The translations under genes and the position numbers were made by a program. Of a DNA stretch of 64,000 bases, positions 7,020-47,751 are shown one piece after another. The stretch is taken from NCBI GenBank assembly GCA_030167865.1, contig JALAGF010001916.1, positions 1 through 64,000 of the forward strand, in the 5' to 3' direction. This DNA is from Craspedostauros australis. Taxonomy: Eukaryota. The notes under the pieces are model-generated. The model had not been told where the DNA came from. It saw only the letters and a program-made list of their open reading frames with translations, and searched no databases. The stretch's first letter is position 1. The number at the start of each line of letters is the position of its first letter.

Positions 7020-8201
7020 TGTGATTCCTCGTACGTTGTTCTTTGTTGCTTTGCTCTCTGTCGATTGTGGTATTATGGTCGTGTGGTGTCTCTGTGGTTT
7101 ATTTGTGAAAGCGATGGACGAAATAGAGCGCACAGCAGAAGGCAGGGCAGCACCGAGAAGCAAGTTCTTTGGGAGTTGTTGAAGTCGTGTCAAGGAGAGT
7201 TCGCCTGTTGCCAAGTCAGCCAGAGTACTCTACGCTGACTGTGACTGTGGATGGGATGGGATGCGGTGGAGTAGAGTAGAGCAGAGCACACTCTGCAGGC
7301 CACTCTATGGCAGTGATGCCTCCAACGATGATGTTCCTTCCGCTCTCTGCCTCCAAATGTTGCTGCCGCTTTTCCCTCCTGCGTGCAGCGGCGGATGAAG
7401 CAGAGCAGAGTATTACTATTATTACTGTTAGTATTAGTATGGTGGAGTATGGTGGAGTCCGAGCGATGGTGCTCTGGTGGTGACGTGAGTTGATGCTTCG
7501 TCAATGATCGAACGAGAGAAGCGAGGAAGCGAGGAAGCAAGAAAGGAAGAGCGCAAGAACGCAAGGAGGTTGATTGGGATCTCCCTGTTTGACGGCCCGT
7601 CGCGGAGGAGTCTTTCCACAACTGTCGACGATCTTCTCTGTCCGTGTGATTTCGTTTCTCTCTTTCTCTGTCACTCTTGCTGTCACTCTTGCTGTCGCTC
7701 TCTGTGTTGTACGCCGTCCCTTCTTGCAGTCCGACGATCCAACCCTGGTATCTGTTGTGCGAGCTACACTCTCGCGCGAGTACCATGAAGCCCGCCACCA
7801 CCCACAGTCCATCGCTCCCCATTTTTCACTCTCCACCGCATCTCTCCTTGACACCAGCAGGCGCAAGTCCCAAAATCTCCTCGTAACATTTGTCTGTTGC
7901 GTTCCCACCAACGGCAGACGTCCCACAAAAAATTTCGGCTTGGCGATTGGCGCAAATCGTTCCCGTTGTTCATTTTTCTCGGTTGACGATTGCTGTTGTG
8001 GTCGTGTGTGCGATGCCGTGTGCTTTCTGTCCACCAAGGCTTCCCTCCGAGGTGCGACATCTTGTTGGACGAACATGGCCAATGATCGACGAATTTATTT
8101 GGTCATCATTCTTGTTGTTCACCAAATGACCAATCATTTTTACGTTGTGCTTTTCTTGGTGGGAATGGCGAAACTCCCGCCATATTAGGGACTATACAAG
8201 T

Positions 8202-22537: not shown

Positions 22538-24271
22538 TCATTCCTGAAGGCGTTCCTTGGCCCTCAACACCTCCGTCTCCCAATTGACACCGAATGTGAC
22601 GATGGTTGCGAACAGCAAAAAGTGGAACCAAGTGCCGACGGTTGTGCCAGCCACGAGACCAACCACGCCGCAGAGGTAGTCGTCGTCGCAAGCCATGTCC
22701 CCGTCGTTGCGTACGAATGAATTGTAGTAGGCCAATGGCAGGCCAACGCACCAGTAGGAGAACACGACGACGGGCACGCTGACCCACTGTTTGCCGCATC
22801 CCTTGAGGGTGCTGTTACATGCGTACAGCATGCCGTCGGCGAAGATGTAGACGGCGAGCAACGGGATGGTTTGTGCAGCCTGTTCGATGACTTCGTCTTG
22901 GCCTGGCGCGAAGAGCGATGGGAAGAAGGTGTGGGGGACGATCATGAACATGGTGCCAAGGCTGAGGGTGACGATGGCTGCGCATGAGACACAGACGATG
23001 CTTGCGAGCTTGGCCTCGTATGGTTTACCTTCGCCCAAGAGGTTACTGACTCTGGCAGTTCCTGCGATTTCGAGTCCCATGGACAACGTGAAGCAGGTCA
23101 CGTTGATGGATTGGAACAGGCTCATTCCACCGAGCGCTGATTCCGGACTGGGCGAGAGCTGTCCCGCAAGGATGACGATCGTCTCGGATGCCCACAATTC
23201 CGCGAAAGCGAAGATGCCGGGCACCGCTAGGACGAGGTATTGGACGATGCCGTAGAGCGATGATATGGCAGCCTTGAATTCTGGCCAGAAGGTCAGTTTG
23301 GTCTTGTTGATCGCGATTGCTCTGGTACTCTCGAGGACCCGCCGCCGCCCGTGCTCAGTACCGAAGGCGTACGCCACCATGATGGCCGATTGCAGCACCT
23401 GGAAGCAGCTTGTCGCGACGGCGCAGCCGATGTAGTCCATTCCCATGTAGTAGATGAAGAACCAGTTGAGCGGCACGTGCAAAGCTAGGGTGATGTAAGA
23501 TGCGTACAAGGGTACGTCCACCATACCGATACTTTGCAACCAAGTCGTGAGTGTGTAAACGAGGCAAAGTCCCCAGAAGCCTGGCACCAGTGCCGTGAGA
23601 TAGTCGGAGGACATGCCGGCGATCATGTCCGTTTGGCCGAGCATCAAGAGGAAGTCCTTGGTGCCCGACAGCCACCAGATTGCAAATGGCAGTATGATGG
23701 CGTGTTGGATGACGAGCGCTCTTATGAAGACGACCATTGGTGGAAGTGGCGCGTCGTCGCCCCCTGCTTCGCTATCGGAGTCATCGCTATCCGTTGGAGC
23801 CGTGGCGACAGTGAACCGCCCAGAATCAGGGATAGTCTCGTCGTCCGTATCGGATTGAGAGCGACCTCTCAGCTTCTCGAGCTTGGCGGTCATCTCTCCG
23901 GTGGATTGACCAGCCAGCGTTGCTGTTGCGGAGTTCAGTCCGCTGGAAAAGCTCAGTCCGACGATATTGCTGAGCGAGGTTGCCAGCGCAGCCGCTGTGA
24001 GCTCTTTGGCGCCCAGCCCTCCTGCGAATCTTATGGAGATGAGCCAGGGAAGCTTGTTGATGACCGAGCTCTGCATGGTTGGACCTGCAAGCTTGAGCTG
24101 CTTTTTCGCTTCCGCGGCGAATAGAGCCCAGGTGATAGAGTCGTCGCCCTTCATGGCCTCGACGCTCTTCATGTCCTCGGAGTGGACGAAGGCGCTGTCA
24201 TTTTCGGCTTTCCAGAGGAGGTGAGAAAGCTCGGTGGATGTCTCGATGTCCTCTCGCTGTTTAGGAGCCAT
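22538..24271 (-). CDS. MATE family efflux transporter (paralog 1)
   Basis: About 12 hydrophobic segments; GLGAKELTAAALA, TLAGQ, LAVPG…ELWASE, RVSNLLGEG and LKGCGKQ. ATG at 24271 (MAPKQ). Confidence 0.93.
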   Translation of the reverse strand: MAPKQREDIETSTELSHLLWKAENDSAFVHSEDMKSVEAMKGDDSITWALFAAEAKKQLKLAGPTMQSSVINKLPWLISIRFAGGLGAKELTAAALATSLSNIVGLSFSSGLNSATATLAGQSTGEMTAKLEKLRGRSQSDTDDETIPDSGRFTVATAPTDSDDSDSEAGGDDAPLPPMVVFIRALVIQHAIILPFAIWWLSGTKDFLLMLGQTDMIAGMSSDYLTALVPGFWGLCLVYTLTTWLQSIGMVDVPLYASYITLALHVPLNWFFIYYMGMDYIGCAVATSCFQVLQSAIMVAYAFGTEHGRRRVLESTRAIAINKTKLTFWPEFKAAISSLYGIVQYLVLAVPGIFAFAELWASETIVILAGQLSPSPESALGGMSLFQSINVTCFTLSMGLEIAGTARVSNLLGEGKPYEAKLASIVCVSCAAIVTLSLGTMFMIVPHTFFPSLFAPGQDEVIEQAAQTIPLLAVYIFADGMLYACNSTLKGCGKQWVSVPVVVFSYWCVGLPLAYYNSFVRNDGDMACDDDYLCGVVGLVAGTTVGTWFHFLLFATIVTFGVNWETEVLRAKERLQE

Positions 24272-24338
24272 CTTGGATTCTGCAGAAACGCTGGTGATGA
24301 GTGATGTGTGATGTATTATGGAATGTATGATGAGTGAG

Positions 24339-24523
24339 TTGTGATGCGTGAATTGTGATGCGTGAATTGTGATGCGTGAATTGTGATGCGTGAATTGTGA
24401 TGCGTGAATTGTGATGCGTGAATTGTGATGCGTGAGTTGTGAGGTGTGAGGTGTGAGGTGTGAGTTGTGAGTTGTGATGCTGACAGGGGTGACGCTGACA
24501 GGTGTGATGCTGACAGGGGTGAC
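24339..24523. repeat. Compound minisatellite: (TTGTGATGCGTGAA)x7, then (KTGTGAG)x~5, then a 15-mer (GTGATGCTGACAGGG-like)x3
   Basis: Units counted directly; begins about 70 bp upstream of the MATE1 ATG. Confidence 0.95.
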
Positions 24524-25385
24524 CGGCAGAAACGTAAGTGCTCTCCTCTTGGTTTGTTGTAACCACAGAGAATGCAGGAAGACGAGTGAGTGTTGGTGGG
24601 ATGCACCAGTTTGCTCCACCAATACTCAGCACGATGAGAGTTGGGCAGAGTGGGTCAGCAAAAAATGGAGAGAAAGACGTTGCGGTTCGCCATCACGACA
24701 GTGACGCGCTCCGGACCATGACTTGAACAACCGGTTCGAGAGCTTTGATTCCATGGACTCAGGGTTATTAAACAAGGCCATTGGATGGCAAGCGCGGCGA
24801 CCAGCAACTTTTCGACCACCCACGCAAATGCAAATGCAAATTTGTTGCGCGCAAAACACGCGAAGGACGCGGTGGCATTAAACAGATGCAACAAACACGT
24901 CACATTCAAAACACAAAGTCCGGTACATGGACGAAACTGCGGGTTCACGACCGACGACACAGCATGTCATTGGATGATTCCTTGAAATGAATCCCGGGCA
25001 TTCCGCATGTCGCAATCAGGGTATCTTTTGCGAATCTCAAAGAAGCGTTATTTTGTGGTTACATTGAGGAACGAAACGGATTTGTTCACTGGCGATGATA
25101 CAAACAGTCCAAATCTACGCCTGTCCGTCAACATCGGCCGCTGATACCGTCATGTGCGAAGAAATAAAGGACACTCTAGCAACCATCAGAAATGGTCCTG
25201 AGACGTGGACCCACATGTACAACAGGAATGTAGAGTAATCTTTTCGTGTCTGTTTGCGTTCAGCCTCCTCGGCGATACTTCACGAATAGAATGTGTGGTA
25301 CGCAGTTCTCATGTTTCTATCTGTTTTCGTGAAGCAACCGAGTCATGATGGAGTAAGAGTATGTAGAGTATTGTATTATATGTTG

Positions 25386-28300
25386 TTACAACTCGCCGGA
25401 TCGCTGAGCGCCACCGAAACGTTGGCCAGCCCACTTGGTCTGTGCGTGGTATCCGTCCGGCACTGGCTCTTCTTCCTCAACCCCAGACTGGACGCTGTCG
25501 GCAGCAGTATTTGCAGTATCGCTCGGGGTCTCCCTTGGACCGTTTCCAGTTCTCGTGTCGTCGCTGCTGGCACTCGGACCGCTCGGACTACTGGGGCTGC
25601 TGCCGCTACCTTTTGAGCTCTTGTCGCTCTTGTCGCTCTTGTCACTCTTCGATCCTTTGCTCGTGCTCGGGCCACTCTTGCTGGTCTTGGGAGACTTGTT
25701 GCCAGTTGGGATCATGCCGGACGGCGAGAGGTTCGGTGGTCGAGTGGGCCTCGGTGTCACGGTTGGGCTGCCCGTCTTCGCAACGCGGATGCCGAAGTTG
25801 CCCGTGTCATCGCCGAATCCACTGACACGGACGAAGTACGTCACATCCCGCTCAGTGTCCCAAGTCAGCGCACTTGCGGCCGTGTTGCTGCACGCGCCAT
25901 CGTCATCGTCACCTGCGACGCACTGCAGGTCGTTGCAACTCTTGCTTCGTGAAATATACACGGACAGCACAGTGTCGAAGTTGGTGGCCGCAGAGCATGT
26001 CGAGACGGTCATCCTGTCGCCGGATCCGACGACGCGGTACCAAACATCCGACGACGAGTGCACACCTCCGATGCAATCCCTCGCCCCTTCGAAGTCGCCT
26101 GCGATGGTGGAACCAAACATAACGGAGCCGTCCGTGCGAAGGTTGATGGCGTCTTCGCATTTGTCATTGTCCGGCGCCGCATCGCCGGTTGTGGCAAACA
26201 CGCCGAACGTGCCACGCAGCTCCTGGAATCCACTCACGCGGATGTGGTACATGGTGCCTTTGGTCGTTCTCCACTCCGCCTGGCTGGTGGTGGTGGAAAA
26301 CTCGCACATGCCGTTGTCATCACCAGACGCGATGCAGGACAGCACTCTGCATGCGCCGTCGTACACGGAGATGATCGTGTCGTAGTTGGTCTGCTCAGTG
26401 CATGTCGAGACGAGGATGTTCCCACCGTTGCCAACCAGTCTGTACCACAAGGCCACTGCAGAGTTGCCTTCGCGGCATGATGCTACGCCATCTGGAACAG
26501 CGGTCATCGTCGATCCCACCAGGATTGTGCCATCCACAGGAAGGTCGATGGCCTCAACGCACTCATCGTTGATTGGTGCATTCTGCGCTTCCAGCCGAAT
26601 GCCGAACGGGCCCTGCGCGTTTCCGACACCACCGACGCGGAGGAAGTATGTAACACCGGTCTCGGCCGTCCATTGCACGGTGCTGCCGCCGTTCATGCCG
26701 CAACCACCATCATCGTTGCCGTCGATGCAGTCCAGACTCATGCAATCTCCATTGTAAACTGACATTTGTGTATCGATGGTTGTTGCACTCACGCAGGTCG
26801 TGGCGACCACTTCGGAACCTGTACCAACGTAGCGGTACCATCGGCCAGCTGGTGTTGATATTGCTTGCGTGCCGCAAATGGGCTGGCTGTCAGGGACAGC
26901 GAAGGTCGTGGAGCCTGTCCGCACGATTCCATCTGCCAGAATGCTCTCGGCTTCCGTGCAAAGGTCATTTGAGGCTGACTCGGAGATGGCGACCTCGAAG
27001 TCACCTCGACTGGTGCCCACACCTCCGATCCTGATGAAGTAGTCGGTGCCATCCACCGTGGGAAACTGCGCTATGTTCCCGTTGCCTGAGCCAAGACCAC
27101 AGGTGCTACCGCCCGATGCACCTTCGACGCAAGCGAGCTGCTGGCAGTTGCCATCGTACACCGACACGACTGTGGGGAAGTTGGTGCTGCCGAAGCATGT
27201 CGAAACCGCCAGTTGTTGTCCCGATCCCTGTACCACATACCAAAGCCCCGGAGATGAATGCGGAGAGCCATCGCATGTATCACTTGAATTGCCGTCCTGC
27301 ACGGCAGTGACGGTGGACCCTGAGACGGGAAGTCCATCGGTCGTGAGCCTCACCGCATCGCCGCATTCGTCGTTGGGCGGTGCCATGACAGGCTGGACGG
27401 AGACATCAAAGTCGCCCGTCTTGTTTTGGAAACCACCAACGCGAATGAAGTACCGCGTTCCCTGCGTCGAGGCCCATTGGGCTGCCGCGCGCTCGGATCC
27501 GAATTGGCATGCCGAGTTCACATCGCTCCCAACAACGCAGCTCAGCGAGGTGCATGGCCCTTCGTAGACGGAGACGACAGTATCGAGGGTTGCCGCGGTA
27601 TTGCTCGTGCAGGTGGACGCGATCAGCACTTCTCCGGTGCCAACAACGCTGTACCAGATGCCATGCACGGATGATGCTAATATGCACGACAATGCATTGT
27701 CTGGAACGGCGGCGACGTTGGACGCAGACACGATGGTGCCGTCGGGTGTCAGTTCGATTGCTCCCACGCATTCATCGTTCGCAGGTGGCGCGATCGTGGC
27801 GACGGAAACAGTGAAGTTCCCGACCTCCGAGTTCAAACCGCCCACGCGGACGTAGTAGTCCTCACCCTGTGCGCCGAACCATTGCACGGTGCTAGCTCCA
27901 GATGAGGTGGAACAGGCGGGGTCGTTGCTTTCCGCTCCGGCGAAGCAGTTTTGGGAGTCGCACTCTTCAAACAGCCAAAGAACGGTGTTCATGGTTGTGG
28001 TTGGGAAGCAGGTCGTGGCAACGAGCCCGGTGTTTGATCCTGTCACTCGGTACCAAAGTCCTACCGATGACAATAACGAAAACTCCAGGCATACATCCAC
28101 GATGCTATCGGACGCGGCATCCATCGTCGCTCCGGGTAACGCAGGTCCATCGGCTGTGATTGGCAGCGCCTGAGCACATGCATCGTTTTCAGGTGCAATG
28201 CCTGTTTGCATCATCGTTGGGACTATCGTGGGCCTGGATGTGTCGGGTACTGTTGGCGCCGCGGTAGGCGAACTGGTGGCTCCTGGAACAGGTTGAGCGC

Positions 28301-31300
28301 TTGGAAGTTGGCTTGGACGAGTGGATGGCGCGCTGGTGGGAGATGCAGTTGGTGAAACGCTGGGGTTGGTCGACGGTGTGGAGGTGGGGCTTTGTGTCGC
28401 GTCCATTCTCGTTGGTACTTGCGATGGGGATGCCGTGGTGGGAACCAACGAGAGGGATGGATTCTGTGACGCCGTCGGGACGAAGGACAACGATGGGTTT
28501 TGCGACATCGACGGCCGTTGCGATGCTGTCGGATTCTGACTGACGGTTGGGACGGCAGAAGGCGATGCGCTGATGTCGAGCGAAGAGAGGCACGTGTCTG
28601 AGTCCGCGGCGAAGATCTGACACTGTAAATCGCAGCTGCAGTTGGGGGCGCATTCCGGAGCCTGTCCGAAGCAGGGGTCGTTGTTGATTTGAACACCCAG
28701 CCGAAGTCCCGCTGTTTCTGGCGTGTCACCTCGGCAGGTCGCCGTGATCTCGTTTTCTCCCACGAAATTGTCGAAAGCCGTCACACCGGAGCCTGCAATG
28801 ATCAAGGCCACCAGCTGTTGGTTGTTGCTGTCGAAGCATGATTGTGTGAATTGGATGTCACCACCATTGAACGCGAGGATGTTGGCCTGCATTCGCGGCG
28901 TATGCCAGTCGAAAAATCATGCGTATTCGAATTTGTATATGTGTGGTAGGTTTCATGGTGGAGATAGTCGGTGCAGATGGTGAGTGCAGGTGGTGGGTGA
29001 GTAGGAATGCAGGCTTACTCGGAGAAGTACAAGAGCATTGAACGTCGCCAAACGCAAGTATTGCAGACAACACAGCAATGGATGAAATGATGAGCCGTGC
29101 CATACCCATACTACGTGATGAAGCCGTGAAAACCGTTCATCTCAACGGAATCTATGGCGGTAGTTGTCATCATGGAGGCGGCATCGTACTCGCAAGCACT
29201 GAGACATTCCATCCATCTGGCGAAAAGAACGTGATAGCACGCAAACAGAGTTCCGGGTCTGTCTTACACTTGCGCCGCTGTTCCCGATGATATTGGCCTG
29301 AATCAGGTTGAGGAATGCACCTGTTCCTTCCGATGCAATGACAGCGGTTGGGGTATTCGGAGCAGAGCTCTGGTATCGATTATTCCTGAAGTTGCTACTT
29401 TCGACTGTGGTGTTGGAACCGTCCCCCGCGGAGAGAATGCTGTTCTGAATACGGCACGATGTGATGAATCAAAGAGAAATTGGAGTGAGAAGAGTAAACT
29501 CAGGCAGAGACGGAGAGACATGGTGAGGATGCGATTTCGATGTCTCCGTGAGAGATGTTGTATGGAATCGCCACAGATGGCCATGTGCCTTACGAGAATG
29601 TAAGAGGAAGTGTCCATGCAGCAGCTGTTGCAACAAGACACTGTGCTCGATTCTTATTGCTTCCATCGGATGAAATGTATGCATGTATGTGTCCTGTCCA
29701 ATATTCGAGATGGATGAGGTAGTACGACAGACAGGGCAGAATATCAGGCAAAACAACGTTCTCCATGTTGCTGGTGTGGTTGCACTCACCAAGAAGAAAT
29801 CATTGTCACTGACGAGAGTGTTGCGGACCGTCATCTGGCAACCAGCGGCGGCGATGAAGCCCGTCCAGGGCGTGGCCTGTTTGTTGTTGGACATTTCAGA
29901 ATTCTCCACGTCGACCATGGCCGAACGACCTTGGCAGCCGATTGCATTTTGCAGGAAGACATTGTCCGTGATGTTCAGTTGTCTGAGTGTCACGGCTCCC
30001 GACAGCGCAACCGCCACAGTCTGTTCTCGTGTTGCATTGTCAGCGTTGTTGTTATTGATGGCCCGATGTGTTACGCGTTTGGAAGGGATGAAGATGATGG
30101 AAGATGGTGTGCAACAAACGGAGTGAGATCATCTTCTTCGTTGTTGATGGAAGATGTTCGTTAAATCAGCCTTCATCCAGTTTCAGTTCCAGTTTCAGTT
30201 GTGAAAAACAAACTCATTGCTGCATCTTTGGTGCACTGCTCAAAGATATTGCGCAAAGGATTAGCCAAGGGCCTCCACGGGGATCATCCAGTGTGGCGGT
30301 ATTGTACCATACGTACGCTGACATCGCTTCTTCTCAAGACAACATCGTCAAGAATCATCTCTCCGTTTCCACGATTTTGGAACAAGAACTAATCCATGAA
30401 AATGAAAGAAGAGCAAACGACAGACAGATGGTGTGAGTAATTCGATGAATGATTTCACCAAGCGATCGCGAATGAGTGAACAAGAGGCGGATAGAGAGGT
30501 ATTGGGGAAGACAACACTCACATTGAAATCCACATGTTCAATGAGGACGTTGTTGATCAGGACGACACCACCGCGATTGTTCACAAGCAAAGACCCCGAA
30601 GCATCCGCTGGTGTCATTGTAGTGCTCTGCAGAGTGGCATGCAAAGTGTAATGTTGAGAGTCATGCCATGGCATGTAATTGAGGGCCGTGTGACCGTCAA
30701 AGTGAGGATACGTAGAGTAGTTGGGACGGTGGGAGGTTGGGCGCACAAGAGTTGAGTGAGAGGCATGGTACGCGCATGATGGAGATTGATGTTTAAAATA
30801 TGCTGCTCGCGGGCAGCACTGCGATGGCCAACGACATTGAATTCAGCCCACTTCGATACAACACGTGTGAGACTGCGGTCTGGTGTATTACTTACTCGAA
30901 TCGTCCCCATGTTGATGCTAAGCGTCATGGAATTGGCGCTTGCCTCGTCGACATCGATAACCTCATTACATGAAAAGTCCTTCACCACAAGAGAAAGAGA
31001 AGCGGCAAAGCGAAGCAGAGTGGAGTTTGATGGAGTATGATGGGTTGAAGCGCATCAGAAATGCATCAGAGATGGAAGATGAAAGAAAGCAAGGAAATAG
31101 CTTGAGATGAAGGCTGTGCGTTTGTACTCGCACATGGCATGATGATCCTGAGAGCACGCACTTCCTTTCATCAATGTGTCCATTTAGTACACAGGACATA
31201 CTGGCACAGAACACGTACCTGCCAAATGCAATTCGCAAAGGTCGCGGTCGCGGGTGCTGCGGCCGTTGCTGAAACAGAAAAGCCATTGAAGTTCTGAAAG

Positions 31301-31719
31301 GTGAGCCCGACGAAAGCAGCCGAATTGAAGTTGTAGGCCGGATTGGCAGGTTCGGGGATGACGACCTGGTTCGTGGTCTGGGCGTTGTGATCCAGAATGC
31401 AGTTCTGATTGACGTTTCCCGATTGTCCGCACTGGAGGATGGCATTGCTGAGAATGACATTGAGTGAAGTGTCGGCCGATGTGTCGAAGGTGGTGGATGG
31501 ACAGAGCACGAGAAGGTAGGCCGGTTCCGGAGCACCTCCAGCAATGACGCGATCAACCTCCGTGACCATGTCCGCGTTGAGATCCGTGATGGTGCTGTAT
31601 CCCGTGATGGCTGCATTGGAGGCACATGGTGCTGTGGATGGCGGGAAGGAGAATTGGGCCTCGCAGAATTGGCTCGTAATGGCCGCAAGGACGATGATAG
31701 TTCGAAACATCCAAGACAT
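25386..31719 (-). CDS. Large secreted modular protein (~1556 aa): signal peptide, beta-helix-like region, PTS-rich stalk, six Cys-rich ND-x-C-x-x-A repeats, KxxK Lys/Ser tail
   Basis: Exons 31719-31219, 30979-30896, 30626-30522, 30388-30317, 30020-29790, 29444-29268 and 28886-25386. All introns are GT-AG, all exon lengths are multiples of 3 and there are no internal stops. Signal peptide MSWMFRTIIVLAAITSQFCEA-Q. Confidence 0.8.
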
Positions 31720-32755
31720 GGCTTGACGTGGGGGTGATCGAGATGATCCTGATTGCGACGTCCTCTGAGCGTGTAATTGGTAGCGCACTATTCGTTGCCC
31801 TTGTCTTTCCGATTCTTGTTGCCAAATGCTGATTGCAGTTGTCTCTTCTGCAAAGGCAGATAGCAGAGGTGCTGATTGATGCGCAGCTGTTGATGCTATT
31901 GTTGATGCTGCTGTGGAGACCATTCCCTCAGTGTTTCCATTGTGGTCAACGTTGACACAGAATCATGAGATCCGAATGAACCTTGGCGATGCAAGGAACG
32001 CCGCCACACTCTCCAAAGGCACAGCACAACTCAACACCATGATCATCATCATCATCCTGTCTGCTTGCTGTGTTGTCTGTGCGGAAACGCAGGTGTGAAG
32101 ATGAAGTTGACAGGTGGTTTCGAATTGTGAGGTGCTCGAATCCATCCGTTGAGCTGCGCGCAGAGCGATCATCGAGTTTGGCGAATGTTTTGTGAGCACA
32201 ATTGTCCCACAAACATGAATCTGACAAAACTCGGCGATCACAGGAAGGAAGGCCAGACGAACTCGAGTACATACTACGAGAAGGAGAGTAGATAAATCTG
32301 CGTTTTTGTGTTTGTGAGCTCTCTGCTCGCACCCTCCGCCACAACGGGGAACTGCTCCGGAATCCCCATTATTCTACTCAATAAAGGAGTTCATCTAAAG
32401 CTGTGAATACTCAGTTCTGCTTGCACCGGAATGGATCACACTACTCTAGCTGCGTTATCTTTATGAACACTTGAACCACAGTCACCGCAACTGGAGATCA
32501 TTGGTGCCCTGCCGAGTCGGAGGCGGACGCGATGGTTTTAAAAATGCAGAGGCGCTGTTTGCCACGGCAGAGTATTTCTAGTCCGGTTAGAGGTGCCATG
32601 AGTTGGTGCTCTGCTCGGATGCACATTTGTGCGGTATGTGCAATACTGTTTTCTATCTCTATTGGTGCGGTACGACCATGCATAGCATGCTCTGTGATCA
32701 TCTGGGTTTGATTGCGTTGCAGATAATAATCTCACAACGGTTGGCATTCGATGCG

Positions 32756-34552
32756 TCATGCCTCCCTCAAGCGCTCCTGGGCCTTGACGGCCTCGTGCTC
32801 CCAGTCGATGGCAAAGACGACCACGCTTGCCACCAGGAGCATGTGGACCCACGTCCCGGTCGTCATGCCGGCCACGAGGCCAACTACTCCGCAGAAGGTG
32901 CTGTCTTCGCACATCATGTCCCCATCGTTGCGAACAAACGAGTTGTAGTACGCCAATGGCAGACCGACGCACCAATATGCGAACAGAACGATTGGCACGT
33001 TGACGCATTGCCGTCCGACGCCTTTGACCATGCTGTTCAATGTGTAGATCAGGCCATCGGCTATGATGTACGCGGAGAGATATGGGATGGTATTCGCGGC
33101 CTGACGGATGACGCTGTCTTCGTCCGGTGCGAATAATGATGGGAAGAATGTGTGCGGCACGGTCAGAAGCATGATACCGAGGCAGGTGGAACATGCGCCG
33201 GCGCATAGGACGCTGGTGAAACCGGCGAAGCGGGCATCGAACGGCTTGCCTTGTCCAATGAGGTTGCTGACTCTGGTCGCTCCGGCGACGCCGAAACCCA
33301 CGGGCAGCATGAAGCAGAAGATGTTGATGGATTGGTAGAGGGTCATGCCGCCCAGCGCGGCTTCGGGCTCCGGTGACAGGCGTCCCGAGAGGAAGATGGA
33401 TATCTCGGATGCCCACCATTCGGAGATTGCGACGATGCCCGGTACCGCGAGCATGAGGTACTGGAAGATACCGCGCAACGACGAGACGGCGATCTTGAAT
33501 TCTGGCCAGAAGGACAGCTGCGTTCTGTTGATCGCGATTGCCGCAGTGCTTTGAAGAACGCGCCGTCTCCCATACGCGGTGCCGAAGACGTAGACGAGGA
33601 TAAAGGCCGCCTGCACCGATTGGAAGATATCCGTGGCGACTGCGCAACCCAGATAATCCAAGTCGACGCCGTAGACGAAGATCCAGTTCATCGGCACGTG
33701 CAATGCCAGGCCGAGCATTGAGGAGTACAGTGGCACATCGACCATCCCAATGCATTGCAGCCAAGTGGTCATGGTCCAAACTATGCAATATGCTGCGAAG
33801 CCTGGCGTCAGGAACCTTAGATACTCGGCCGTCATGGCGGCCAGCGACTCCGGCTGTCCCAAGGATAAGAGGAGTGCATCGACACCACTCAGCCACCATG
33901 TCGCGATGGGGACGACGAAGAGAATCTGAATCATCAGGCCTCTGTACAGGAACACCAAGGGAAGCAGCGGTTCAACGGTTTCTTCTTCGTCATCGTCGGC
34001 GCTGCCATCCCCATCTGCGATGCCACGTGCCGATGATCTGACCTGCTGTTCTGAATCCTCCTGAACGCACCGCGTGCTGCAGGACGATACTGCTGACTCT
34101 GGTGACGACAGCTTGCGCACCAGATCGCCCTTGGCCTGTCCGGCGAGCGTCGTCATGGCGGAGCTCAAGCCCACCGACAGACTGAGGCCGGTGACATTGT
34201 AGATCGTCGTCGCCAGCGCGGCCGCCGCCAGTTCGTTGGCGCCCAGACCGCCCGCGAACCGAATGGAGATGAGCCAGGGAAGTTTGGTGAGGATCATGCT
34301 CTGTATGGTGGGCACGGCAACTTTCAATTGCTCTCTGGCTTCGATGAGAAAGCGACGACGCAAGGATGCGTGCTTGTCAATATCCTCGTGCAGAGTTGTA
34401 GTGTGGTTGGCGTCGACATAGTTGTCGACATCGCTGTCGATATCGCCGTCGATATCGCCCTGTTCGTTCTCCGAGTCGATGTGGAACGGCGAAAGAAAGC
34501 GCGGAGCCTCTGGTTCGAAGTTCTTCGGTCCTTCGTCCTGTTTTGGCGCCAT
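32756..34552 (-). CDS. MATE family efflux transporter (paralog 2)
   Basis: GLGANELAAAALA, TLAGQAKG, ISEWWASE, TRVSNLIGQG and VKGVGRQ; colinear with MATE1 and sharing the MAPKQ start. Confidence 0.95.
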   Translation of the reverse strand: MAPKQDEGPKNFEPEAPRFLSPFHIDSENEQGDIDGDIDSDVDNYVDANHTTTLHEDIDKHASLRRRFLIEAREQLKVAVPTIQSMILTKLPWLISIRFAGGLGANELAAAALATTIYNVTGLSLSVGLSSAMTTLAGQAKGDLVRKLSSPESAVSSCSTRCVQEDSEQQVRSSARGIADGDGSADDDEEETVEPLLPLVFLYRGLMIQILFVVPIATWWLSGVDALLLSLGQPESLAAMTAEYLRFLTPGFAAYCIVWTMTTWLQCIGMVDVPLYSSMLGLALHVPMNWIFVYGVDLDYLGCAVATDIFQSVQAAFILVYVFGTAYGRRRVLQSTAAIAINRTQLSFWPEFKIAVSSLRGIFQYLMLAVPGIVAISEWWASEISIFLSGRLSPEPEAALGGMTLYQSINIFCFMLPVGFGVAGATRVSNLIGQGKPFDARFAGFTSVLCAGACSTCLGIMLLTVPHTFFPSLFAPDEDSVIRQAANTIPYLSAYIIADGLIYTLNSMVKGVGRQCVNVPIVLFAYWCVGLPLAYYNSFVRNDGDMMCEDSTFCGVVGLVAGMTTGTWVHMLLVASVVVFAIDWEHEAVKAQERLREA

Positions 34553-34997
34553 GGTCAAGCGTGGAGTTAGAAAATGGCAGAGTCTGTTCGTTTTCTCAGT
34601 TGTCGGTCATGGATCATGCGTCCTTTCCCGCTGGTGCTCCACTCCGTGCCTCCTGTCTGTGTACTGACTCGTTGAGTAATCAAGATGTGATCATGGTTAT
34701 CGTGAACATCATTCCGTCATGAAGAGATGTGACGTCGTTGCGCCTTGATTGCCGCAGTTCGTTGTTTGCCGCCAACGCAGAAAAGTGCGTGGGGCGGTAG
34801 CCTTTGCGGTCCAGTGTAGACAGACAACAGGGGTCGGGAATGGTTCGCGAAGGACGAATCTTTTGTGCCATTTCTCGCAACTTCGTCGCTGGCGTCGACA
34901 GTCGAGGCTTCTCCCACCATGACATAACACTCCAAGCAGTGCACATCCAACCATGGCACGATCACAGCGCTTCCAACCGCACTACTCTCTACCCCTG

Positions 34998-35999: not shown

Positions 36000-36290
36000 G
36001 TTTCCTTCGTTGGCCTGTTGCGTGGTGCTGATGGGAGAAGGCCATTGGCTCTGTCGCTCGGCTTTTGTGTTCATTGCATCCAAGATGATGCGTTGCGCTG
36101 TCTGTGCATTGGTGATGCCACGCAGCCGGTTGAGTGAAGCAGGTAGGTAGGTGGCCATTGTCGTATAGTAATGTGACATTCTGAATCGCGATGCGTTCGT
36201 GCGATGTTTGTATGTAATAGTTGATGTAGCCGATGTAGCTGATGCAGTTGCCGCAGCTTCTGGAACATGCGAGCACTTGACTGCCTTGCT

Positions 36291-36332
<42 letters not shown>

Positions 36333-36350
36333 GAATCAATCAATCAATCA
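36291..36350. repeat. (ATCA)15 microsatellite, one ATGA variant
   Basis: Directly visible, 16 bp past the stop codon of the 36367 gene. Confidence 0.97.
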
Positions 36351-36366
36351 GCCTGACTGACTGACT

Positions 36367-40503: not shown

Positions 40504-43500
40504 TTATGCGCTGTACAATCTCTGTGTGATGGATTTTTGGTGCGACCGGTCATCATCAAAGTCGTTGTCGTATGCCGGCTTTCGTGGGGTTGGTGCTGCG
40601 GCCGTGCCAGAGGCTCGCTTGCTGTACACCTTCGAGGATGTGCCATCGGGGTCGGCAGCTTGTCGGCGCTGCGGGATGTTGCGTTCGGCCAGTGGAGAAA
40701 GGCCAGGTGCTTCAATTGCCTTTGCCTTCGTGCCGGTGCCGACGCTCTTTTGGTTGGGGCTTGTGCTCGTCATGGTTTGACTTCCCAACATTGGACGATT
40801 CTCACGGCTAGAATCGGTGCTCTTTGAACCGGCAGTCGACGGTGACATGCTGTGGCTGTTCGTGTTGGTGTGGCTGTCACTGCTTCGACTGCCGGAGATG
40901 TGATTGTAGGAGGCCTGCTGCTGCTGCTGCTTCTGTTGCTGGATCATCATTTGGTGCGATGGAGACACACCCGTCAATCCGCTCTTCGGCGTTGCGTTTT
41001 CGTAAAACATCGGCGCCATCTCAGCATTGTCATTGTCCTCGCCGGCCATTTGTGCTCCTGCAAGCAGGGCACGTTCCGCGGTCTCGTTGCCTGGCTGGAC
41101 GACTTCCGTTCCTGGCCGCATCTCGGATTCTGTCTGCTTCAATGCGATGTCTTGGCTGTCGGCCTTTCGCAAAGTCAGCGGTGCAGTTTCCGCATTGCCG
41201 TTGGCCTCTCCTGCCATCTTCGATGCGCTCTTCATGGCATCCTCCACCTTGTCGCTCTCCGACTTTGGCTTGCGCCCGAAGCGGCTGAACAGACCGCGCT
41301 TTTGAGGTGTCGCGCCATTCTCCTTGCTCTTCTTGCCTTGCTGCTTCTTGGCTGACTTCTTTGCAGCCACCTTGGATGTGGTCTTGCTGTGGGAACTGTT
41401 CGCTTTGTTCTTTGCTGCTGCTCCCAGCGCGGCAGATTTCGATGGCGTTTGATTGATGCTGGTAGATTGGCCTTGCTTCGTCTGCTGCTTTGCCTTTCCT
41501 GCTGTTGAGGGCACAGCAGTTGCACTCGCTGGTGCACTAGTGCGCGTTGGCATTGAGTCAGGTGACATGCTCTCCTTCGCTCCGGCTTCTTCTGCTTCGT
41601 CTGACTTGGATGTCACCGAGACGATAGCAGTCTCGTTGTTAAGAGCATCGGCAGCAACGGGTGCGGAGGCGCTCGTCATTGATCGTGTTCCATCGGGTGC
41701 ATTTGGCGTTGGAGCTCCGATAGCATACCGGTCGCCCTGCTTGGACTCACTCCCATCAGCTGTCCCAAATGATCTGGATTGCAACCGGGGTATATCATCG
41801 TGCAGCTGCGAAGCCTCGCTTTCATCGATGTTCTCAATGGCACGAAGTTGGATGGTGGCTTCCTGTCCGTTCTTCCGTGGCGGCTGCTGTTGTTGGGCCT
41901 TGGATTTAGCGGACTTCTTGTTCTGCTTCGCCTTCTTGCCAGCCCCGTCAGCGCCATCGGTCGCCTTGTTGGATGATCCCTTGTTCCAACCTTGGAACAG
42001 TCGGAACTTCTTGCTCTCCTTCGTGGTAGTGGTCGTATTCGTTCGTTTGCTCTTGGCAATGTCATGGTTGGCACTGCCAGTGGTGTGATCCGGCACATCT
42101 TCCTTCTTCTCTTCTTCTGGTTGCATTCCGGCATCAGGTGCGCTAACTGGCTCCGCCTCTTTCGCGCTCTCGGTCTGCATGATGTGTTCCCACGACTTCT
42201 GCGCGAGGACTTCCGGCGGGATGCCCTGGGGTGCCTTGATGAAGGTGGGCTGTCGTGAGAGTTCACGCTGTTGACGCAGTGACCGCATGGATGCGACGCT
42301 GCCGTCCTCGTCTTCGTCAATGCCACCATGTGTCAGATGCTGCTGATTCTTGCGACGTCCAGCCCTGGCGGCCTTGTTTCGAGGTATGGCCAGGAGGGAA
42401 CCCTCGCTCGCCTCCAAGGCCACGATGCTGTCCTTGAGATGCTCCTCCATGTACTCGTCAGCTTGGACGTACTTGGCATCACGTGGGTCATGCGTCGATG
42501 ACAATTCGTCGATGTCCTCGCCGTTGCGATCGATGGCGAATTCTTCATCCTGGCCGATCGTGACACTGCGGTGCTCTTCGAGTTCCGAACTGGAGACGTA
42601 CTTGTCCATGTCCGCGCTCTTGGACGTGGTCGTTGCTCTGATGGCGTCGCCACCATTAGCATCACGGGCGTTCTTGGCGTTGTTCTTCCACGACAACCAT
42701 CCAGATCGTTTGGAGGGAGACGTCGGCGACTTGGGAGACTTGGCGCCGACTTTGTTGCTGGCGTTGCTCGGGACGCCCACAAAGGGAATGGCCCGACGTG
42801 GCGATCGCTTTTGCGTTGTGTTGTTGGTCGCAACGGCGGGACTCTTTGCATCCGAAGCGCCGGGACCATCGAGGATCTCGTTGAGGCTGGACATGGACAT
42901 GACGTCCGAGGCCATGCCATTCTGGGGCGAGGGATTGGGAGGAATGGCCGGGAGCACTTGGAGAGCCGAATTGTGCTCGAATGATTGGTTGAAACCCAGC
43001 GTGGACATGTCGTGGTCATCATCGTCGTCGTCGTAGTAGGCAGCGTAGTCCTCGTCCTCGTCGTCCTCGTCGTCATCCTCGTCGTCCTGGCTGAGCATGT
43101 TCTTTTCGAGAAGCTGTCTTAGATCCAGACCCTTTGGCAGGATGCTCTCCAGGTACTGCTTTGCCATGCCGGCGTACTGGTCGGCGGTCTGGAAGAGACC
43201 GACCGTGGCAGCAGTGACCGTACCAGCTGCGGCGGGCACCTCGCCCTTGAGGTACCTCCATCGCATGGGATTGGTGACGACGGCCTGCGAGTGGCTGTTC
43301 TCATCATTGCTGGTGCTGGTGCTGATACTGGTGCTGATGCTATTGTTGATGGTGAGATTTCTGTTGTCGATGGTGGCCGTAGTGGAAGTGTATGCACTTG
43401 TATTTGTGCTTGCATTTGTGCTTGCATTTGTGCTTGCGCTTGTGGCATGGTTTCTGGCAGCACCCCTCCTGATGTTCTTTGCCACTCTGGTGGTGTCATC

Positions 43501-44796
43501 CGAGATGGTTTTGCCTCCGGTCGATCCGGTATCATCCGTGGCGTGAGAGTAGCCGTTGGTGCTGCTTCCGTTGGTGCTGCCACTGATGGCATGATTCGGC
43601 CTGGTTCTGCCCTTGTTCTTGTTCTTGCTCTTTTTGGAAAGCTTGATGGCACCCGTCGATGCGGCGTCGTCACCATCCACAGCTGGCATGGGATTGGAAT
43701 AGACGATGCGCTGCGCCTGGAATGCAGCGGCCGTTCCCTTCATCGTCAAGTCGGACATGGCCGTTTCCAACTCCGGAATGTCTCCGTTGCTATTGCTGCC
43801 GCTGTTGCTGCTGACCTTGGCATTGGTCTTTGGCCGATTGTTCTTGCCCTTGCCATTGTTGTTGTTGTCTCTGTTGCTGTTGTCTCTGTTGTTGTCTCTG
43901 TTGTTGTAGCCTTTGTTGGCAGTTCTGGTGGAGGTATCAACATCAATGATGGCCGCGTTGGCGATGAGCATGCGTGCTGCCTTGGCATGGTGGAACGCGT
44001 TTCGGACCAGCTCGTTGGAGTCCTGCAATCGCGGCGTGCCATTGACGGTGAGCGCCTGATGCAGCAGCTTGCGCGCCTTGACCATGTTGAGCGCCGCCTC
44101 TCGTTGGACGCTTCGCGGTGTGGATCTGTTGCTGCTCTGCACGTCGGCGACTGTTGGGAGCAAGACGACGGCTCTTTTGGTGGTCTTCGTGCTTGCCTTT
44201 GCGGTTGCCTTCGCTTTGGATGGCGACTTGGTGAGCTTGTCTGGCTTGGCCGCGTTGGCGGCATCCGGCTTCGCGGAGCCCTTTGGCTTTCCGTTGATGG
44301 CCGCGGATGCCTTCTTGCGAAGACCCTTGAAGAGCGACTTCTTGCCCCCTGCCTTGCCATCCGCGCTGGACTGCTGCTGAGCTTCTGAGGCGTCAACGCC
44401 ATCGCCGTCCTTATTGTCCCCATTGTCGTGGCCCTGATCGTTCTCCTGAAGCTCGTGCTCCACCCAGAGAGCCTCCTGTCCTTCCTCTGCCTCGGGAGTC
44501 GGTGCTGCGACGCCGGTGTCCACCCTCAGATTCGGTCTGCTCTGTGCAGCATTCTTCTTCGACGGCGACGTCTGCGTGTTGGAGGATGATCGCGTGACCT
44601 CATGCACTGTGACGGCCTGGTGGTGGTACTGCTGCGGCTGCGACGCCTTGCCATGATCCACGTGCGGCTGCTCCACCTGACGAATGTGCTGCTGCGGCTG
44701 AGGCTTGGCCTTGGCAGCCCCCGCCCCAGTGTCCACCGTCAAACCGAGCGCCATCTTGGACTTCTTTCTCGTTCCGTTTGCCGTTCCTTCCTGCAT
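40504..44796 (-). CDS. Very large intrinsically disordered protein (~1430 aa)
   Basis: 4.3-kb stop-free frame rich in K/S/N/Q/D tracts; plausible ATG at 44796 (MQEGTANG); no recognisable domain. Confidence 0.75.
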   Translation of the reverse strand: MQEGTANGTRKKSKMALGLTVDTGAGAAKAKPQPQQHIRQVEQPHVDHGKASQPQQYHHQAVTVHEVTRSSSNTQTSPSKKNAAQSRPNLRVDTGVAAPTPEAEEGQEALWVEHELQENDQGHDNGDNKDGDGVDASEAQQQSSADGKAGGKKSLFKGLRKKASAAINGKPKGSAKPDAANAAKPDKLTKSPSKAKATAKASTKTTKRAVVLLPTVADVQSSNRSTPRSVQREAALNMVKARKLLHQALTVNGTPRLQDSNELVRNAFHHAKAARMLIANAAIIDVDTSTRTANKGYNNRDNNRDNSNRDNNNNGKGKNNRPKTNAKVSSNSGSNSNGDIPELETAMSDLTMKGTAAAFQAQRIVYSNPMPAVDGDDAASTGAIKLSKKSKNKNKGRTRPNHAISGSTNGSSTNGYSHATDDTGSTGGKTISDDTTRVAKNIRRGAARNHATSASTNASTNASTNTSAYTSTTATIDNRNLTINNSISTSISTSTSNDENSHSQAVVTNPMRWRYLKGEVPAAAGTVTAATVGLFQTADQYAGMAKQYLESILPKGLDLRQLLEKNMLSQDDEDDDEDDEDEDYAAYYDDDDDDHDMSTLGFNQSFEHNSALQVLPAIPPNPSPQNGMASDVMSMSSLNEILDGPGASDAKSPAVATNNTTQKRSPRRAIPFVGVPSNASNKVGAKSPKSPTSPSKRSGWLSWKNNAKNARDANGGDAIRATTTSKSADMDKYVSSSELEEHRSVTIGQDEEFAIDRNGEDIDELSSTHDPRDAKYVQADEYMEEHLKDSIVALEASEGSLLAIPRNKAARAGRRKNQQHLTHGGIDEDEDGSVASMRSLRQQRELSRQPTFIKAPQGIPPEVLAQKSWEHIMQTESAKEAEPVSAPDAGMQPEEEKKEDVPDHTTGSANHDIAKSKRTNTTTTTKESKKFRLFQGWNKGSSNKATDGADGAGKKAKQNKKSAKSKAQQQQPPRKNGQEATIQLRAIENIDESEASQLHDDIPRLQSRSFGTADGSESKQGDRYAIGAPTPNAPDGTRSMTSASAPVAADALNNETAIVSVTSKSDEAEEAGAKESMSPDSMPTRTSAPASATAVPSTAGKAKQQTKQGQSTSINQTPSKSAALGAAAKNKANSSHSKTTSKVAAKKSAKKQQGKKSKENGATPQKRGLFSRFGRKPKSESDKVEDAMKSASKMAGEANGNAETAPLTLRKADSQDIALKQTESEMRPGTEVVQPGNETAERALLAGAQMAGEDNDNAEMAPMFYENATPKSGLTGVSPSHQMMIQQQKQQQQQASYNHISGSRSSDSHTNTNSHSMSPSTAGSKSTDSSRENRPMLGSQTMTSTSPNQKSVGTGTKAKAIEAPGLSPLAERNIPQRRQAADPDGTSSKVYSKRASGTAAAPTPRKPAYDNDFDDDRSHQKSITQRLYSA

Positions 44797-45786
44797 CTTG
44801 CCCAGCTTCGCTTTGGGTGTGGGATGCTCTGTGTTTTGTGGCGTATGGAGTGGTATGCAGTGGTATGGTGGTTTGTTCAATGATGCGAGATTGATGTGAG
44901 AATGGAGGGAGATGGGAGGGGAGACTGCTCTTGGCAGAGTGTGTGGCAGGGGTGTCGTCGTTGCTCCTGCTTCTTGCTCTCTTTCTATTGTTGTGGGTGG
45001 ATGGATCGCACTCGGCAGTTTGCAACTCCACACAACATCGATCGTTACAAACTCAATTTTGTGCTGCCACAGAACACTTGTGCGCCAACAACGTTATTCC
45101 GTCGTTTGTCGCCACCACCAATGCTCCCACCTCACAATTTATTTCGATTTTGTCGTGCACCGACAGATTATGCAACATGTGTGATGCGTCTCATCCATGG
45201 GAGTTGCACATCCAACAGCCCAATTGAACGGATCGTGACAACAATATTCAACGTATACAATGATAAATACAACGGAATACATTGTATTTCTGTTGGGGTT
45301 CCTTTCGCCGAAGCGCACCACCAACAAATTGGCAGCAACAATCGCGATTTAGCTGCATTTGCAATTCCAGATCTCGTAATTCAGCTCCAAAATATGGTGC
45401 AACAAGGCTTCAAACTTGGAAACTACCGCCAGTATTTCATGTCGAAAGTGACATCGGTTATTTCCATGCAGCTAGAGGAAGAGCCACAATGGTTGGGCAC
45501 CAACATCTCGATTTCAATGTTGATGATGGAATCGCACCCAACTCTGGAGGGTGCTCAACGCTGCGGGTATGGGACAGCCATTCTTCGACTACTTCTACAT
45601 TCATTCTTACAAGTTGAACCTGCTTCCTTTCTTCCCTCTTGCTTCATTGCTTGTCGTTGCTTGCCCTGTTCTATCCTGTCTTCCTCCATTCCTTCCTTCA
45701 TATTCCATGGGCCAATCTGCGAAAGCTCACACAACCGCACCAGAAAGAGGAGACCGCCGATATCTCCTCCCACCATCAACATCATC

Positions 45787-46725: not shown

Positions 46726-47751
46726 CTTTCCTGTTGGTGCTTTTGACGCGGTTCCTCTTCTTGCTTCTCGTTGCTCTGTCCTGGGGTTACGATTTGATCA
46801 ACCTTCAGGAATGGGATCTTGTCTGATTGTGCTAAGCTGCTTGGTTCCTCTCTCTCTTGACTTCCTGGGTCTGTCTTCGTTCTGGTGCGAGTGCGGGTGG
46901 AGGCGGGAAAGGTGATGTTGGTACTGGTTGTGATGGTGTGCTAGACGTGGTGGACGTGGACGCGGATGTGGACTTTGGTGTGGATGTTGGTGTCGAAGCT
47001 GTGGTGATCTTTTGATTTGATTCTTCCCGAGTCTTCCAAAGAGAGTCCGTTTGACCGTTCTCATCATGGTGCTTGTTGCACGTTGTTGAGTCACCCCACG
47101 ACAACGTGACGTTTTGGTTCTTGGATCGCTTGCGCGAGATGACCCAGTTGATTCGAATGACTCCTTGAGAAGGCTGTTTGGCGAGATGAACTTGGACTCG
47201 TGGAGGAAATTATACTGCCTTAATACATGAATACAACACAATGAACATGGTGTCCTCTGTATGTCACATAGTACATTCCAGTTCATCGCGCAGAGGTGAT
47301 CTCGCCAAAATGGCCACATTTTTACCTCTGCTGACTCAAACACCACAAAACCAACATTTCACAGAAACCAATCCGCAAACGCCAACAGAATCAATCCTCT
47401 TGGAAAAGGACGCGGAATACTCAACTGTATTCTGCAACATCTTCTTCTTGCGCGTCTCTGTTGTTGCAGGAGGGAAGGAAGCATACACTCTGGCCACACA
47501 AACGGATATCACAACGGCTTCATGCTTGTAAGAAAGGAACCAACTCTTGACAAGTCGTCAACGACAACATCATCCCCAAGGCAAACGCGATACAAAACAC
47601 ATCGCAACTGTCAACACTTTGGGAGCAGCCTCATCCCATCCAGAGTACTGCAATCCTCCAAAGATTACATCGCCAACTTTCCATCATCTTCATCTCCAAC
47701 TTCGAGCAGCCGTTCACAGCAGCAAAAACAGTATTCTGGGAATAGGCGACG

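Follow-up and report, generated by a model that had tools for sequence, protein, structure and literature searches.

Phase-0 introns in step with the coils of a predicted right-handed beta-helix in a gene of Craspedostauros australis

A correspondence between exons and protein repeats is well known for leucine-rich repeats (LRR), tetratricopeptide repeats (TPR) and the repeats of immunoglobulin (Ig) and epidermal growth factor (EGF) type. Discussion of the right-handed beta-helix has usually concerned intron-less genes of bacteria, viruses and fungi, and the known carbohydrate-active examples of this fold are mostly bacterial, fungal or viral; we know of none with coil-sized exons, and literature searches combining beta-helix with intron and exon terms found no description of such exons. 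Here we describe a gene of Craspedostauros australis in which six introns, all in phase 0, divide a predicted right-handed beta-helix in step with its coils. The gene lies in a window of 64,000 nucleotides, by which we mean the whole stretch of DNA that was analysed (positions 1 to 64,000 of the forward strand of contig JALAGF010001916.1, GenBank assembly GCA_030167865.1).

The closest described case is that of Ectocarpus, where single exons encode single LRR or TPR repeats and are shuffled, as stated in the excerpted text of a 2012 report (PMC3341825). Like those genes, the gene described here is a stramenopile gene of solenoid type, with repeat-linked exons in multiples of three that could be gained or lost in frame. 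The Ectocarpus exons of the same excerpt are identical in length (e.g. 72 nt), similar in sequence and variable in number between recent paralogs, which points to active shuffling, whereas the exons of our gene range from 72 to 231 nt, hold one to three coils, have no detectable DNA similarity to one another and build a helix with a fixed number of coils; this helix, moreover, is a right-handed beta-helix and not an LRR or TPR solenoid. Symmetric exons are a feature of the Ectocarpus type that is found here, and equal-length, similar exons and a variable repeat number are not. Animal extracellular domain repeats, for which duplication via recombination in introns has been proposed (Björklund et al. 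2006, PMC1553488, excerpted text), offer a second parallel, as there too exon junctions in an extracellular repeat protein recur at the repeat period. What is repeated in the animal cases is an entire folded domain (Ig, EGF), and the mobile domains there typically use phase-1 introns; in our gene it is one coil within a domain, and the introns are in phase 0. With the carbohydrate-active beta-helix proteins (the A-modules of AlgE4 and AlgE6, PL6, GH28 and phage tailspikes) the gene product has in common the predicted fold and an asparagine in a two-residue turn. The gene is thus a new example of the known exon-per-repeat type.

We rebuilt the gene model from the raw sequence and obtained one seven-exon gene with six introns on the minus strand (31719-25386), encoding a spliced protein of 1556 residues. 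Exon 1 (31219..31719; 501 nt, aa 1-167) carries the start codon, a hydrophobic N-terminal stretch read by eye (31654-31719, aa 1-22), the N-terminal cap and the first coils of the helix. It is followed by exon 2 (30896..30979; 84 nt, aa 168-195), exon 3 (30522..30626; 105 nt, aa 196-230), exon 4 (30317..30388; 72 nt, aa 231-254), exon 5 (29790..30020; 231 nt, aa 255-331) and exon 6 (29268..29444; 177 nt, aa 332-390), and then by exon 7 (3501 nt, stop codon included), the first part of which (28572..28886, aa 391 to ~495) holds the last coils and a Cys-rich C-terminal cap. As the length of each exon is a multiple of three, all six introns are in phase 0. They are of GT...AG type with donors of the form GT[AG][AC]G[TA]: intron 1 (30980..31218; 239 nt, GTACGT...AAG), intron 2 (30627..30895; 269 nt, GTAAGT...CAG), intron 3 (30389..30521; 133 nt, GTGAGT...TAG), intron 4 (30021..30316; 296 nt, GTACGT...CAG), intron 5 (29445..29789; 345 nt, GTGAGT...CAG) and intron 6 (28887..29267; 381 nt, GTAAGA...CAG). 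Retention of intron 1, 4, 5 or 6 would bring in-frame stops, and retention of intron 2 or 3 a frame shift. The exons have a GC content at third codon positions of 0.50-0.70, and the introns an overall GC content of 0.47. All six introns are confined to the beta-helix part of the gene. The rebuilt model reproduced what a first-pass annotation of the window had given, namely six phase-0 introns, internal exons of the lengths listed above and the remaining 3.5 kb of the gene in one exon; its coordinates ran from the start codon at 31719 to the first base of exon 7 at 28886, and the peptides it quoted are exon 4 and the beginnings of exons 5 and 6. In Phaeodactylum there are 0.7 introns per gene and 53% of genes are intron-less (PMC5859163, excerpted text); if the present genome resembles that one, six introns in 1.2 kb of coding sequence are unusual among diatoms.

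A HMMER scan with exon 1 recovered 330 representative clusters at E ≤ 1e-3, 166 of them at or below 1e-10 (best E = 2.8e-38). The named members of this family are from diatoms, Seminavis robusta (CAB9518563.1, named 'Right handed beta helix domain-containing protein' in UniRef) and Entomoneis paludosa (an MMETSP transcript), and the other matches are mostly unnamed open reading frame (ORF) calls on assembled contigs. The family appears to be a large and uncharacterised one, made up of predicted secreted beta-helix proteins of diatoms. A word-index search with exon 1 (at 'longer' lengths) and an NCBIfam scan of the exons gave no match, a word-index search with the family alignment recovered its own query only, probably owing to an excess of low-complexity words, and a scan of bacterial and archaeal genomes with a single-protein query, a weak test for distant relatives, found none.

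Across all six junctions the spliced product can be aligned collinearly, at 21-29% identity, with 11 homologous modules drawn from 10 proteins, and the alignment is free of gaps at five of the six, the exception being an insertion of ~7 residues just after junction 2, at the start of exon 3. As a check, a hidden Markov model (HMM) was built from the homologs only, with the row of the window gene excluded, and run on the six-frame translation of the window. It recovered exon 1 at E = 3.9e-44 with a match ending exactly at 31219, exon 5 at E = 1.4e-6 (30023..29790) and the beginning of exon 7 at E = 1.9e-9 (match from 28892); exon 6 (E = 0.0056, aligned off register) and exon 3 (E = 0.15) were weak, and exons 2 and 4 were missed because they are too short. 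The same search found no second copy of the family elsewhere in the window. The first-pass annotation had allowed that exons 1-6 and exon 7 might prove to be separate genes. They are not, as the helix continues over intron 6 into exon 7, and, as judged from these alignments, the seven-exon gene is real.

Among the homologs (labelled here by P numbers), P0026, P0094, P0088, P0135, P0063 and P0081 either contain two complete beta-helix modules one after the other or run from the end of one module into the start of the next. On this sequence evidence the family duplicates entire modules, in P0026 among others.

The first-pass reading of the region as beta-helix-like is borne out by structural models of two homologs. 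The AlphaFold model of P0160, made with the family alignment, has a predicted local distance difference test score (pLDDT) above 90 over residues 21-320 and a lower one beyond, with a disordered tail; that of P0140 has a mean pLDDT of 88.9 and a predicted template modelling score of 0.87. Both are regular stacks of coils, with strand triplets, a period of 24-29 residues and the pattern 5-2-3-2-(8-9)-loop. Each coil runs from strand S2 (five residues) over a two-residue turn to S3 (three residues), then over a second two-residue turn, with a conserved asparagine, to a long S4+S1 stretch and a Gly-containing loop. In Foldseek searches against the PDB, all the top matches listed are right-handed beta-helices (best E = 9.1e-5 and 2.0e-4, TM scores up to ~0.5, 6-16% identity to solved structures). 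Most of them are carbohydrate enzymes. The mannuronan epimerase A-modules of AlgE4 and AlgE6 come first and PL6 alginate lyases, GH28 enzymes, tailspikes and adhesins after them, and AlgG is also among the best structural neighbours of both models. The conserved Asn columns in the two-residue turn after S3, which we take to be the classical T2 turn, stand at model aa 300 (11/11), 327 (12/12), 353 (8/9) and 386 (7/8).

Carried over from the homolog models by alignment, these results indicate that the corresponding region of the window gene is a right-handed parallel beta-helix of ~470 aa with N- and C-terminal caps. Sequence profiles detect it poorly. When the window gene was scanned exon by exon with the Pfam Beta_helix family (PF13229), exon 5 alone was found (E = 0.0084), at 16.2 bits against a cut-off of 25.9 bits; among the homologs this cut-off is exceeded by P0156 (27.8 bits) and P0053 (29.4 bits), and P0160, P0148 and P0026 stay below it. 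PDB sequence searches with the family profile and with exon 7 gave chance-level matches only. The Chlamydial PMP repeat (PF02415) matched no exon at E ≤ 1, the sole pointer to it being a lead to one bacterial cluster, 31% of which carries PF02415.

Mapped through the homolog models, introns 1 to 6 fall 10, 10, 15, 15, 16 and 16 residues from the start of S2. Introns 1 and 2 come directly after the short strand S3, and introns 3-6 interrupt the long strand after the Asn turn, three to four residues from its start and 5-6 residues past the register of introns 1 and 2; the first two introns are thus one strand earlier than the other four. The introns are not in loops, and introns 3-6 are inside a strand. 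The P0140 model agrees for junctions 1, 4 and 5, and an extra intron of P0140 itself is at offset 15. Exons 2 to 6 hold 1, ~1.2, 1, 3 and 2 coils, and for exons 4, 5 and 6 these counts are exact; exon 2 amounts to one coil, with its register displaced by five residues, and exon 3 exceeds one coil by five residues. The proposal that exon boundaries match individual rungs of the helix therefore stands in so far as exons hold whole coils in step, but the boundaries occupy two registers and not one structural position. An alternative placement, with all six introns four residues after a conserved asparagine, has been withdrawn, as the structure models put introns 1 and 2 one strand earlier; it arose because the S2-turn-S3 pattern resembles S3-turn-S4, a pseudo-periodicity within the coil. 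When motifs that would fix the coil register were sought de novo in the window protein, the alignments were ambiguous and at odds with the reading by eye.

Evidence on intron positions in the rest of the family comes from the ends of the public ORFs. Most family matches are ORFs of 170-250 aa whose similarity ends at model residue 166/167 and which continue with tails such as Val-Ser or Val-Arg. These tails are what a prokaryote-style ORF caller produces on running through a phase-0 GTAAGT or GTACGT donor, and we read them so. At junction 1, valine stands at the projected first intron codon in 79 of 81 fragments that end 0-4 residues before it, against a background of 7.3% Val, and HMM projection places 85 fragments there. 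The same signature is present in 5/5 fragments at junction 2 (10 by HMM projection), in 2/4 at junction 3 (three by projection) and in the single fragment at junction 4 (four by projection, at aa 253/254), and at junction 5 P0078, P0177, P0101 and P0174 stop at the aligned position with VR or VS tails. Junction 6 is outside the reach of all homolog fragments, so that sharing across the family concerns junctions 1-5. Two further members, P0140 and P0150, stop one coil further on, at an equivalent seam at which the window gene has no intron, and their ends indicate a further phase-0 intron at the seam of that next coil. In P0150 and P0115 the public ORFs run in frame through the site of junction 1, where the inserted residues begin with Val and end in Gln, and in P0035 and P0050 intron 1 is missing and intron 2 present. 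We infer that the introns are old and that their positions are shared over a large diatom gene family. The first-pass annotation had proposed a comparison of intron phases across diatom homologs, and this comparison yields a phase-0 signature at junctions 1-5 by a method that sees phase 0 only. Many family entries in public sets are exon-1 stubs with junk tails, and the family is systematically mis-called.

In the reading that we prefer, the layout is the historical trace of duplicated coils in one real gene, followed by loss of introns; we give this about an even chance of being correct. The middle of the solenoid would have grown as a stretch of DNA encoding one or two coils, with a phase-0 intron in it, was duplicated in tandem, and later loss of different introns in different family members would have left fused exons of three and two coils; introns 1 and 2, which lie in atypical N-terminal coils, would need a separate origin. 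Profile-profile comparison of 70-residue windows of the family alignment detects an internal repeat of two coils (offsets 53 and 59, with probabilities of 92%, 90% and 66%), and the offset of 59 places intron 5 exactly on intron 6. The position of introns 3-6 inside a strand fits descent by duplication better than selection for loop sites. In coil-register tests against random sets of six positions spaced at least 20 residues apart, 7 of the 15 junction pairs agree within one residue (random mean 1.77), a value reached by 130 of 30,000 random sets, and four junctions fall in a two-residue offset window, which is reached by 425 of 30,000. The similarity of junction contexts in the family profile is reached by 40 of 20,000 random six-position sets. 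Random placement of the introns relative to the rungs would have undone the first-pass proposal; what is seen is an in-step pattern, at P ~0.002 to 0.06 depending on the statistic. The combination of phase 0, shared offset, in-strand sites, two-coil repeat and patchy presence is unlikely to be due to chance.

A stronger version is that the helix was built coil by coil from one-coil mini-exons, with an ancestral phase-0 intron at every central seam, and, in its boldest form, that some members still vary the length of the helix with cassettes. We offer this tentatively, as possible but somewhat doubtful.

A number of observations weigh against an origin by duplication. As the six introns are in two registers, they cannot all go back to one duplicated exon unit. 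The introns have no similarity to each other (blastn among introns and against the window gave self matches only), which speaks against recent duplication, and the coils are barely alike. The number of coils does not vary among the six full-length modules, which come from five homologs and are at 24-29% identity, and no insertion or deletion of a whole coil is seen in them. Beta-helices of PF13229 type are mostly bacterial, to which some weak sequence-cluster leads can be added, and if the whole domain arrived without introns, the introns are later gains. The intron mapping is indirect, made through homolog models at 25-29% identity and good to about 1-2 residues, and the statistics on junction pairs and on the offset window (130 and 425 of 30,000) were chosen after the offsets had been seen. 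Other statistics are less decisive: circular concentration (Rayleigh-type) is reached by 5798 of 100,000 random sets, the smallest arc holding all six phases by 3205 of 100,000, and junction-context similarity in the window gene alone by 1398 of 20,000. Direct comparison with hhalign, which has low power here, superposed 1 of 15 junction pairs at a probability of at least 50 (P 0.07-0.28) and 3 of 15 at a probability of at least 3. Finally, the Val-tail signature reveals phase-0 introns only, so that introns in other phases or out of register would be missed, and ~40 fragments in the HMM projection end without it.

Several of the same observations would be expected if the introns had been gained independently, that is, if an intron-less domain had received repeated insertions at a favoured spot, either a site resembling a proto-splice site or one set by a mechanistic bias, with like codon contexts in each coil drawing introns to equivalent positions. 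Such gains would account for the two different registers, for introns unrelated in sequence and for the fixed number of coils. All six junctions have a similar local pattern (hydrophobic, x, Asn-like, x, x, hydrophobic, x, junction), so that sequence-guided insertion could reach both registers. The junctions, however, have no common proto-splice site (CAG/GAC, CGA/AGC, AAT/TTC, AGC/ACT, TTG/AAC and AGT/GCC, with the slash marking the intron), and the introns resemble neither each other nor the rest of the window, which argues against an introner-like element. As the positions are common to many diverged members, any gains would also have to be old. We regard independent gain as rather unlikely, though worth serious consideration.

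It is improbable, in our judgement, that the pattern is a coincidence, an ordinary intron-rich patch in a repeat domain without meaningful relation between introns and coils. The statistics are marginal in part (P ~0.03-0.06 for the phase tests, 0.07 for the context of the window gene alone), the finding was picked from a scan and is subject to a look-elsewhere effect, and phase 0 is the commonest intron phase in nearly all genomes. If phase 0 accounts for about half of introns, six of six would be expected by chance in roughly 1-2% of cases. Coincidence has to account not only for this but also for four introns within one residue of one offset with two more at another, for the extra in-register intron of homologs at a seam where the window gene has none, and for exons 4, 5 and 6 being exactly one, three and two coils long.

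The first-pass annotation had suggested that the layout allows any exon to be skipped or duplicated in frame, tuning the length or surface of the solenoid by splicing or shuffling. All internal exons are indeed symmetric (0-0), so that any skip or duplication would stay in frame, exon 4 is exactly one coil, and exon skipping has been reported in a diatom, Phaeodactylum, beside the more prominent intron retention (PMC5859163, excerpted text). The tuning itself finds no support: that these exons serve as functional cassettes, giving isoforms or alleles that differ in helix length or surface, is very improbable given that all six full-length modules, from five homologs of which one is transcript-derived (P0160, which has every coil), agree in their number of coils, that there are no recent exon duplicates and the introns are unrelated, that the family duplicates whole modules (P0026), and that skipping exon 2 or 3, whose register differs from that of exons 4-6, would shift strand pairing by five residues.

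Beyond the helix, the predicted domain order of the protein is a signal peptide, the beta-helix, a Pro/Thr/Ser-rich linker, six PPC/galactose-binding-like modules and a Lys/Ser-rich tail. The signal peptide, and with it secretion, is predicted from the hydrophobic N-terminus read by eye. All parts after the helix are encoded by exon 7 on the minus strand: the linker (28188..28571, aa ~496-623; S 18%, P 17%, T 13%), six tandem PPC-like repeats of ~134 aa without an intron (25767..28187, aa 624-1430) and a Ser/Gly/Pro/Lys-rich tail that ends with the stop codon (25386..25766). The PPC-like repeats lie in one uninterrupted exon, unlike the beta-helix that precedes them, which is rich in introns. 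The homologs have the helix, the linker and Lys/Ser-rich stretches in common with the window protein, but not the PPC repeats. The six repeats gave no Pfam match in the window copies; a phmmer search with exon 7 found 25 distant relatives, at E between 6.6e-56 and 5e-5, and for many of these there are precomputed assignments to PF04151 or PF23759 (GBD_T9SS_assoc). A language-model look-alike search scored 0.97 with PPC/GBD clusters. The best relatives of the repeats are bacterial (Planctomycetota and others), together with one Pelomyxa protein.

The product is probably secreted and heavily glycosylated, a protein of the cell surface or matrix in a diatom-type alga. As judged from its fold neighbours, the likeliest role of the beta-helix is to bind or modify an acidic polysaccharide. 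Its likeness to mannuronan C-5 epimerase and PL6 alginate lyase is at the level of the fold only, with 9-12% identity, and diatoms are not known to produce alginate. Both homolog models are closest to alginate-active beta-helix enzymes. Lys/Ser/Gly-rich stretches after the Pro/Thr/Ser-rich linker occur in the window protein (25386-25766, minus strand) and in P0148, P0053, P0156 and P0160. They are reminiscent, presumably no more than as a lead, of the lysine clusters of diatom silaffins, and by that analogy may hint at an association with the cell wall.

A scan of the region 28500-32300 against Rfam gave no match, so the introns hold no known RNA gene. The first-pass annotation had described most neighbouring genes as poor in introns, and a rough check, by ORFs and not by intron counts, agrees with this in that at least nine neighbours have their Pfam domains inside single long ORFs. 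The beta-helix gene lies between two genes for MatE-family transporters, both on its own minus strand (22538-24625 and 32756-34606). The window also holds four very long ORFs of 937-1627 aa (40504-45093, minus; 47746-52629, plus; 59030-62254, plus; 4416-7229, minus), for which there was no Pfam match at E ≤ 0.001, and a short tandem repeat at ~36290-36360 that reads SINQSINQ... in one frame.

For work on this family, it matters that the prokaryote-style ORF calls in public collections cut these genes off at the first intron. If the introns were inherited from duplications, the family would show a beta-solenoid lengthening coil by coil in a eukaryote, and the introns would mark natural cut points for engineering the length of a helix; if, beyond this, the helix was assembled from one-coil mini-exons, it would be a rare case of exon duplication acting on a structural element smaller than a domain, within a single fold. 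As its neighbours by structure act on acidic polysaccharides, the family may also have a bearing on the biology of the diatom extracellular matrix.

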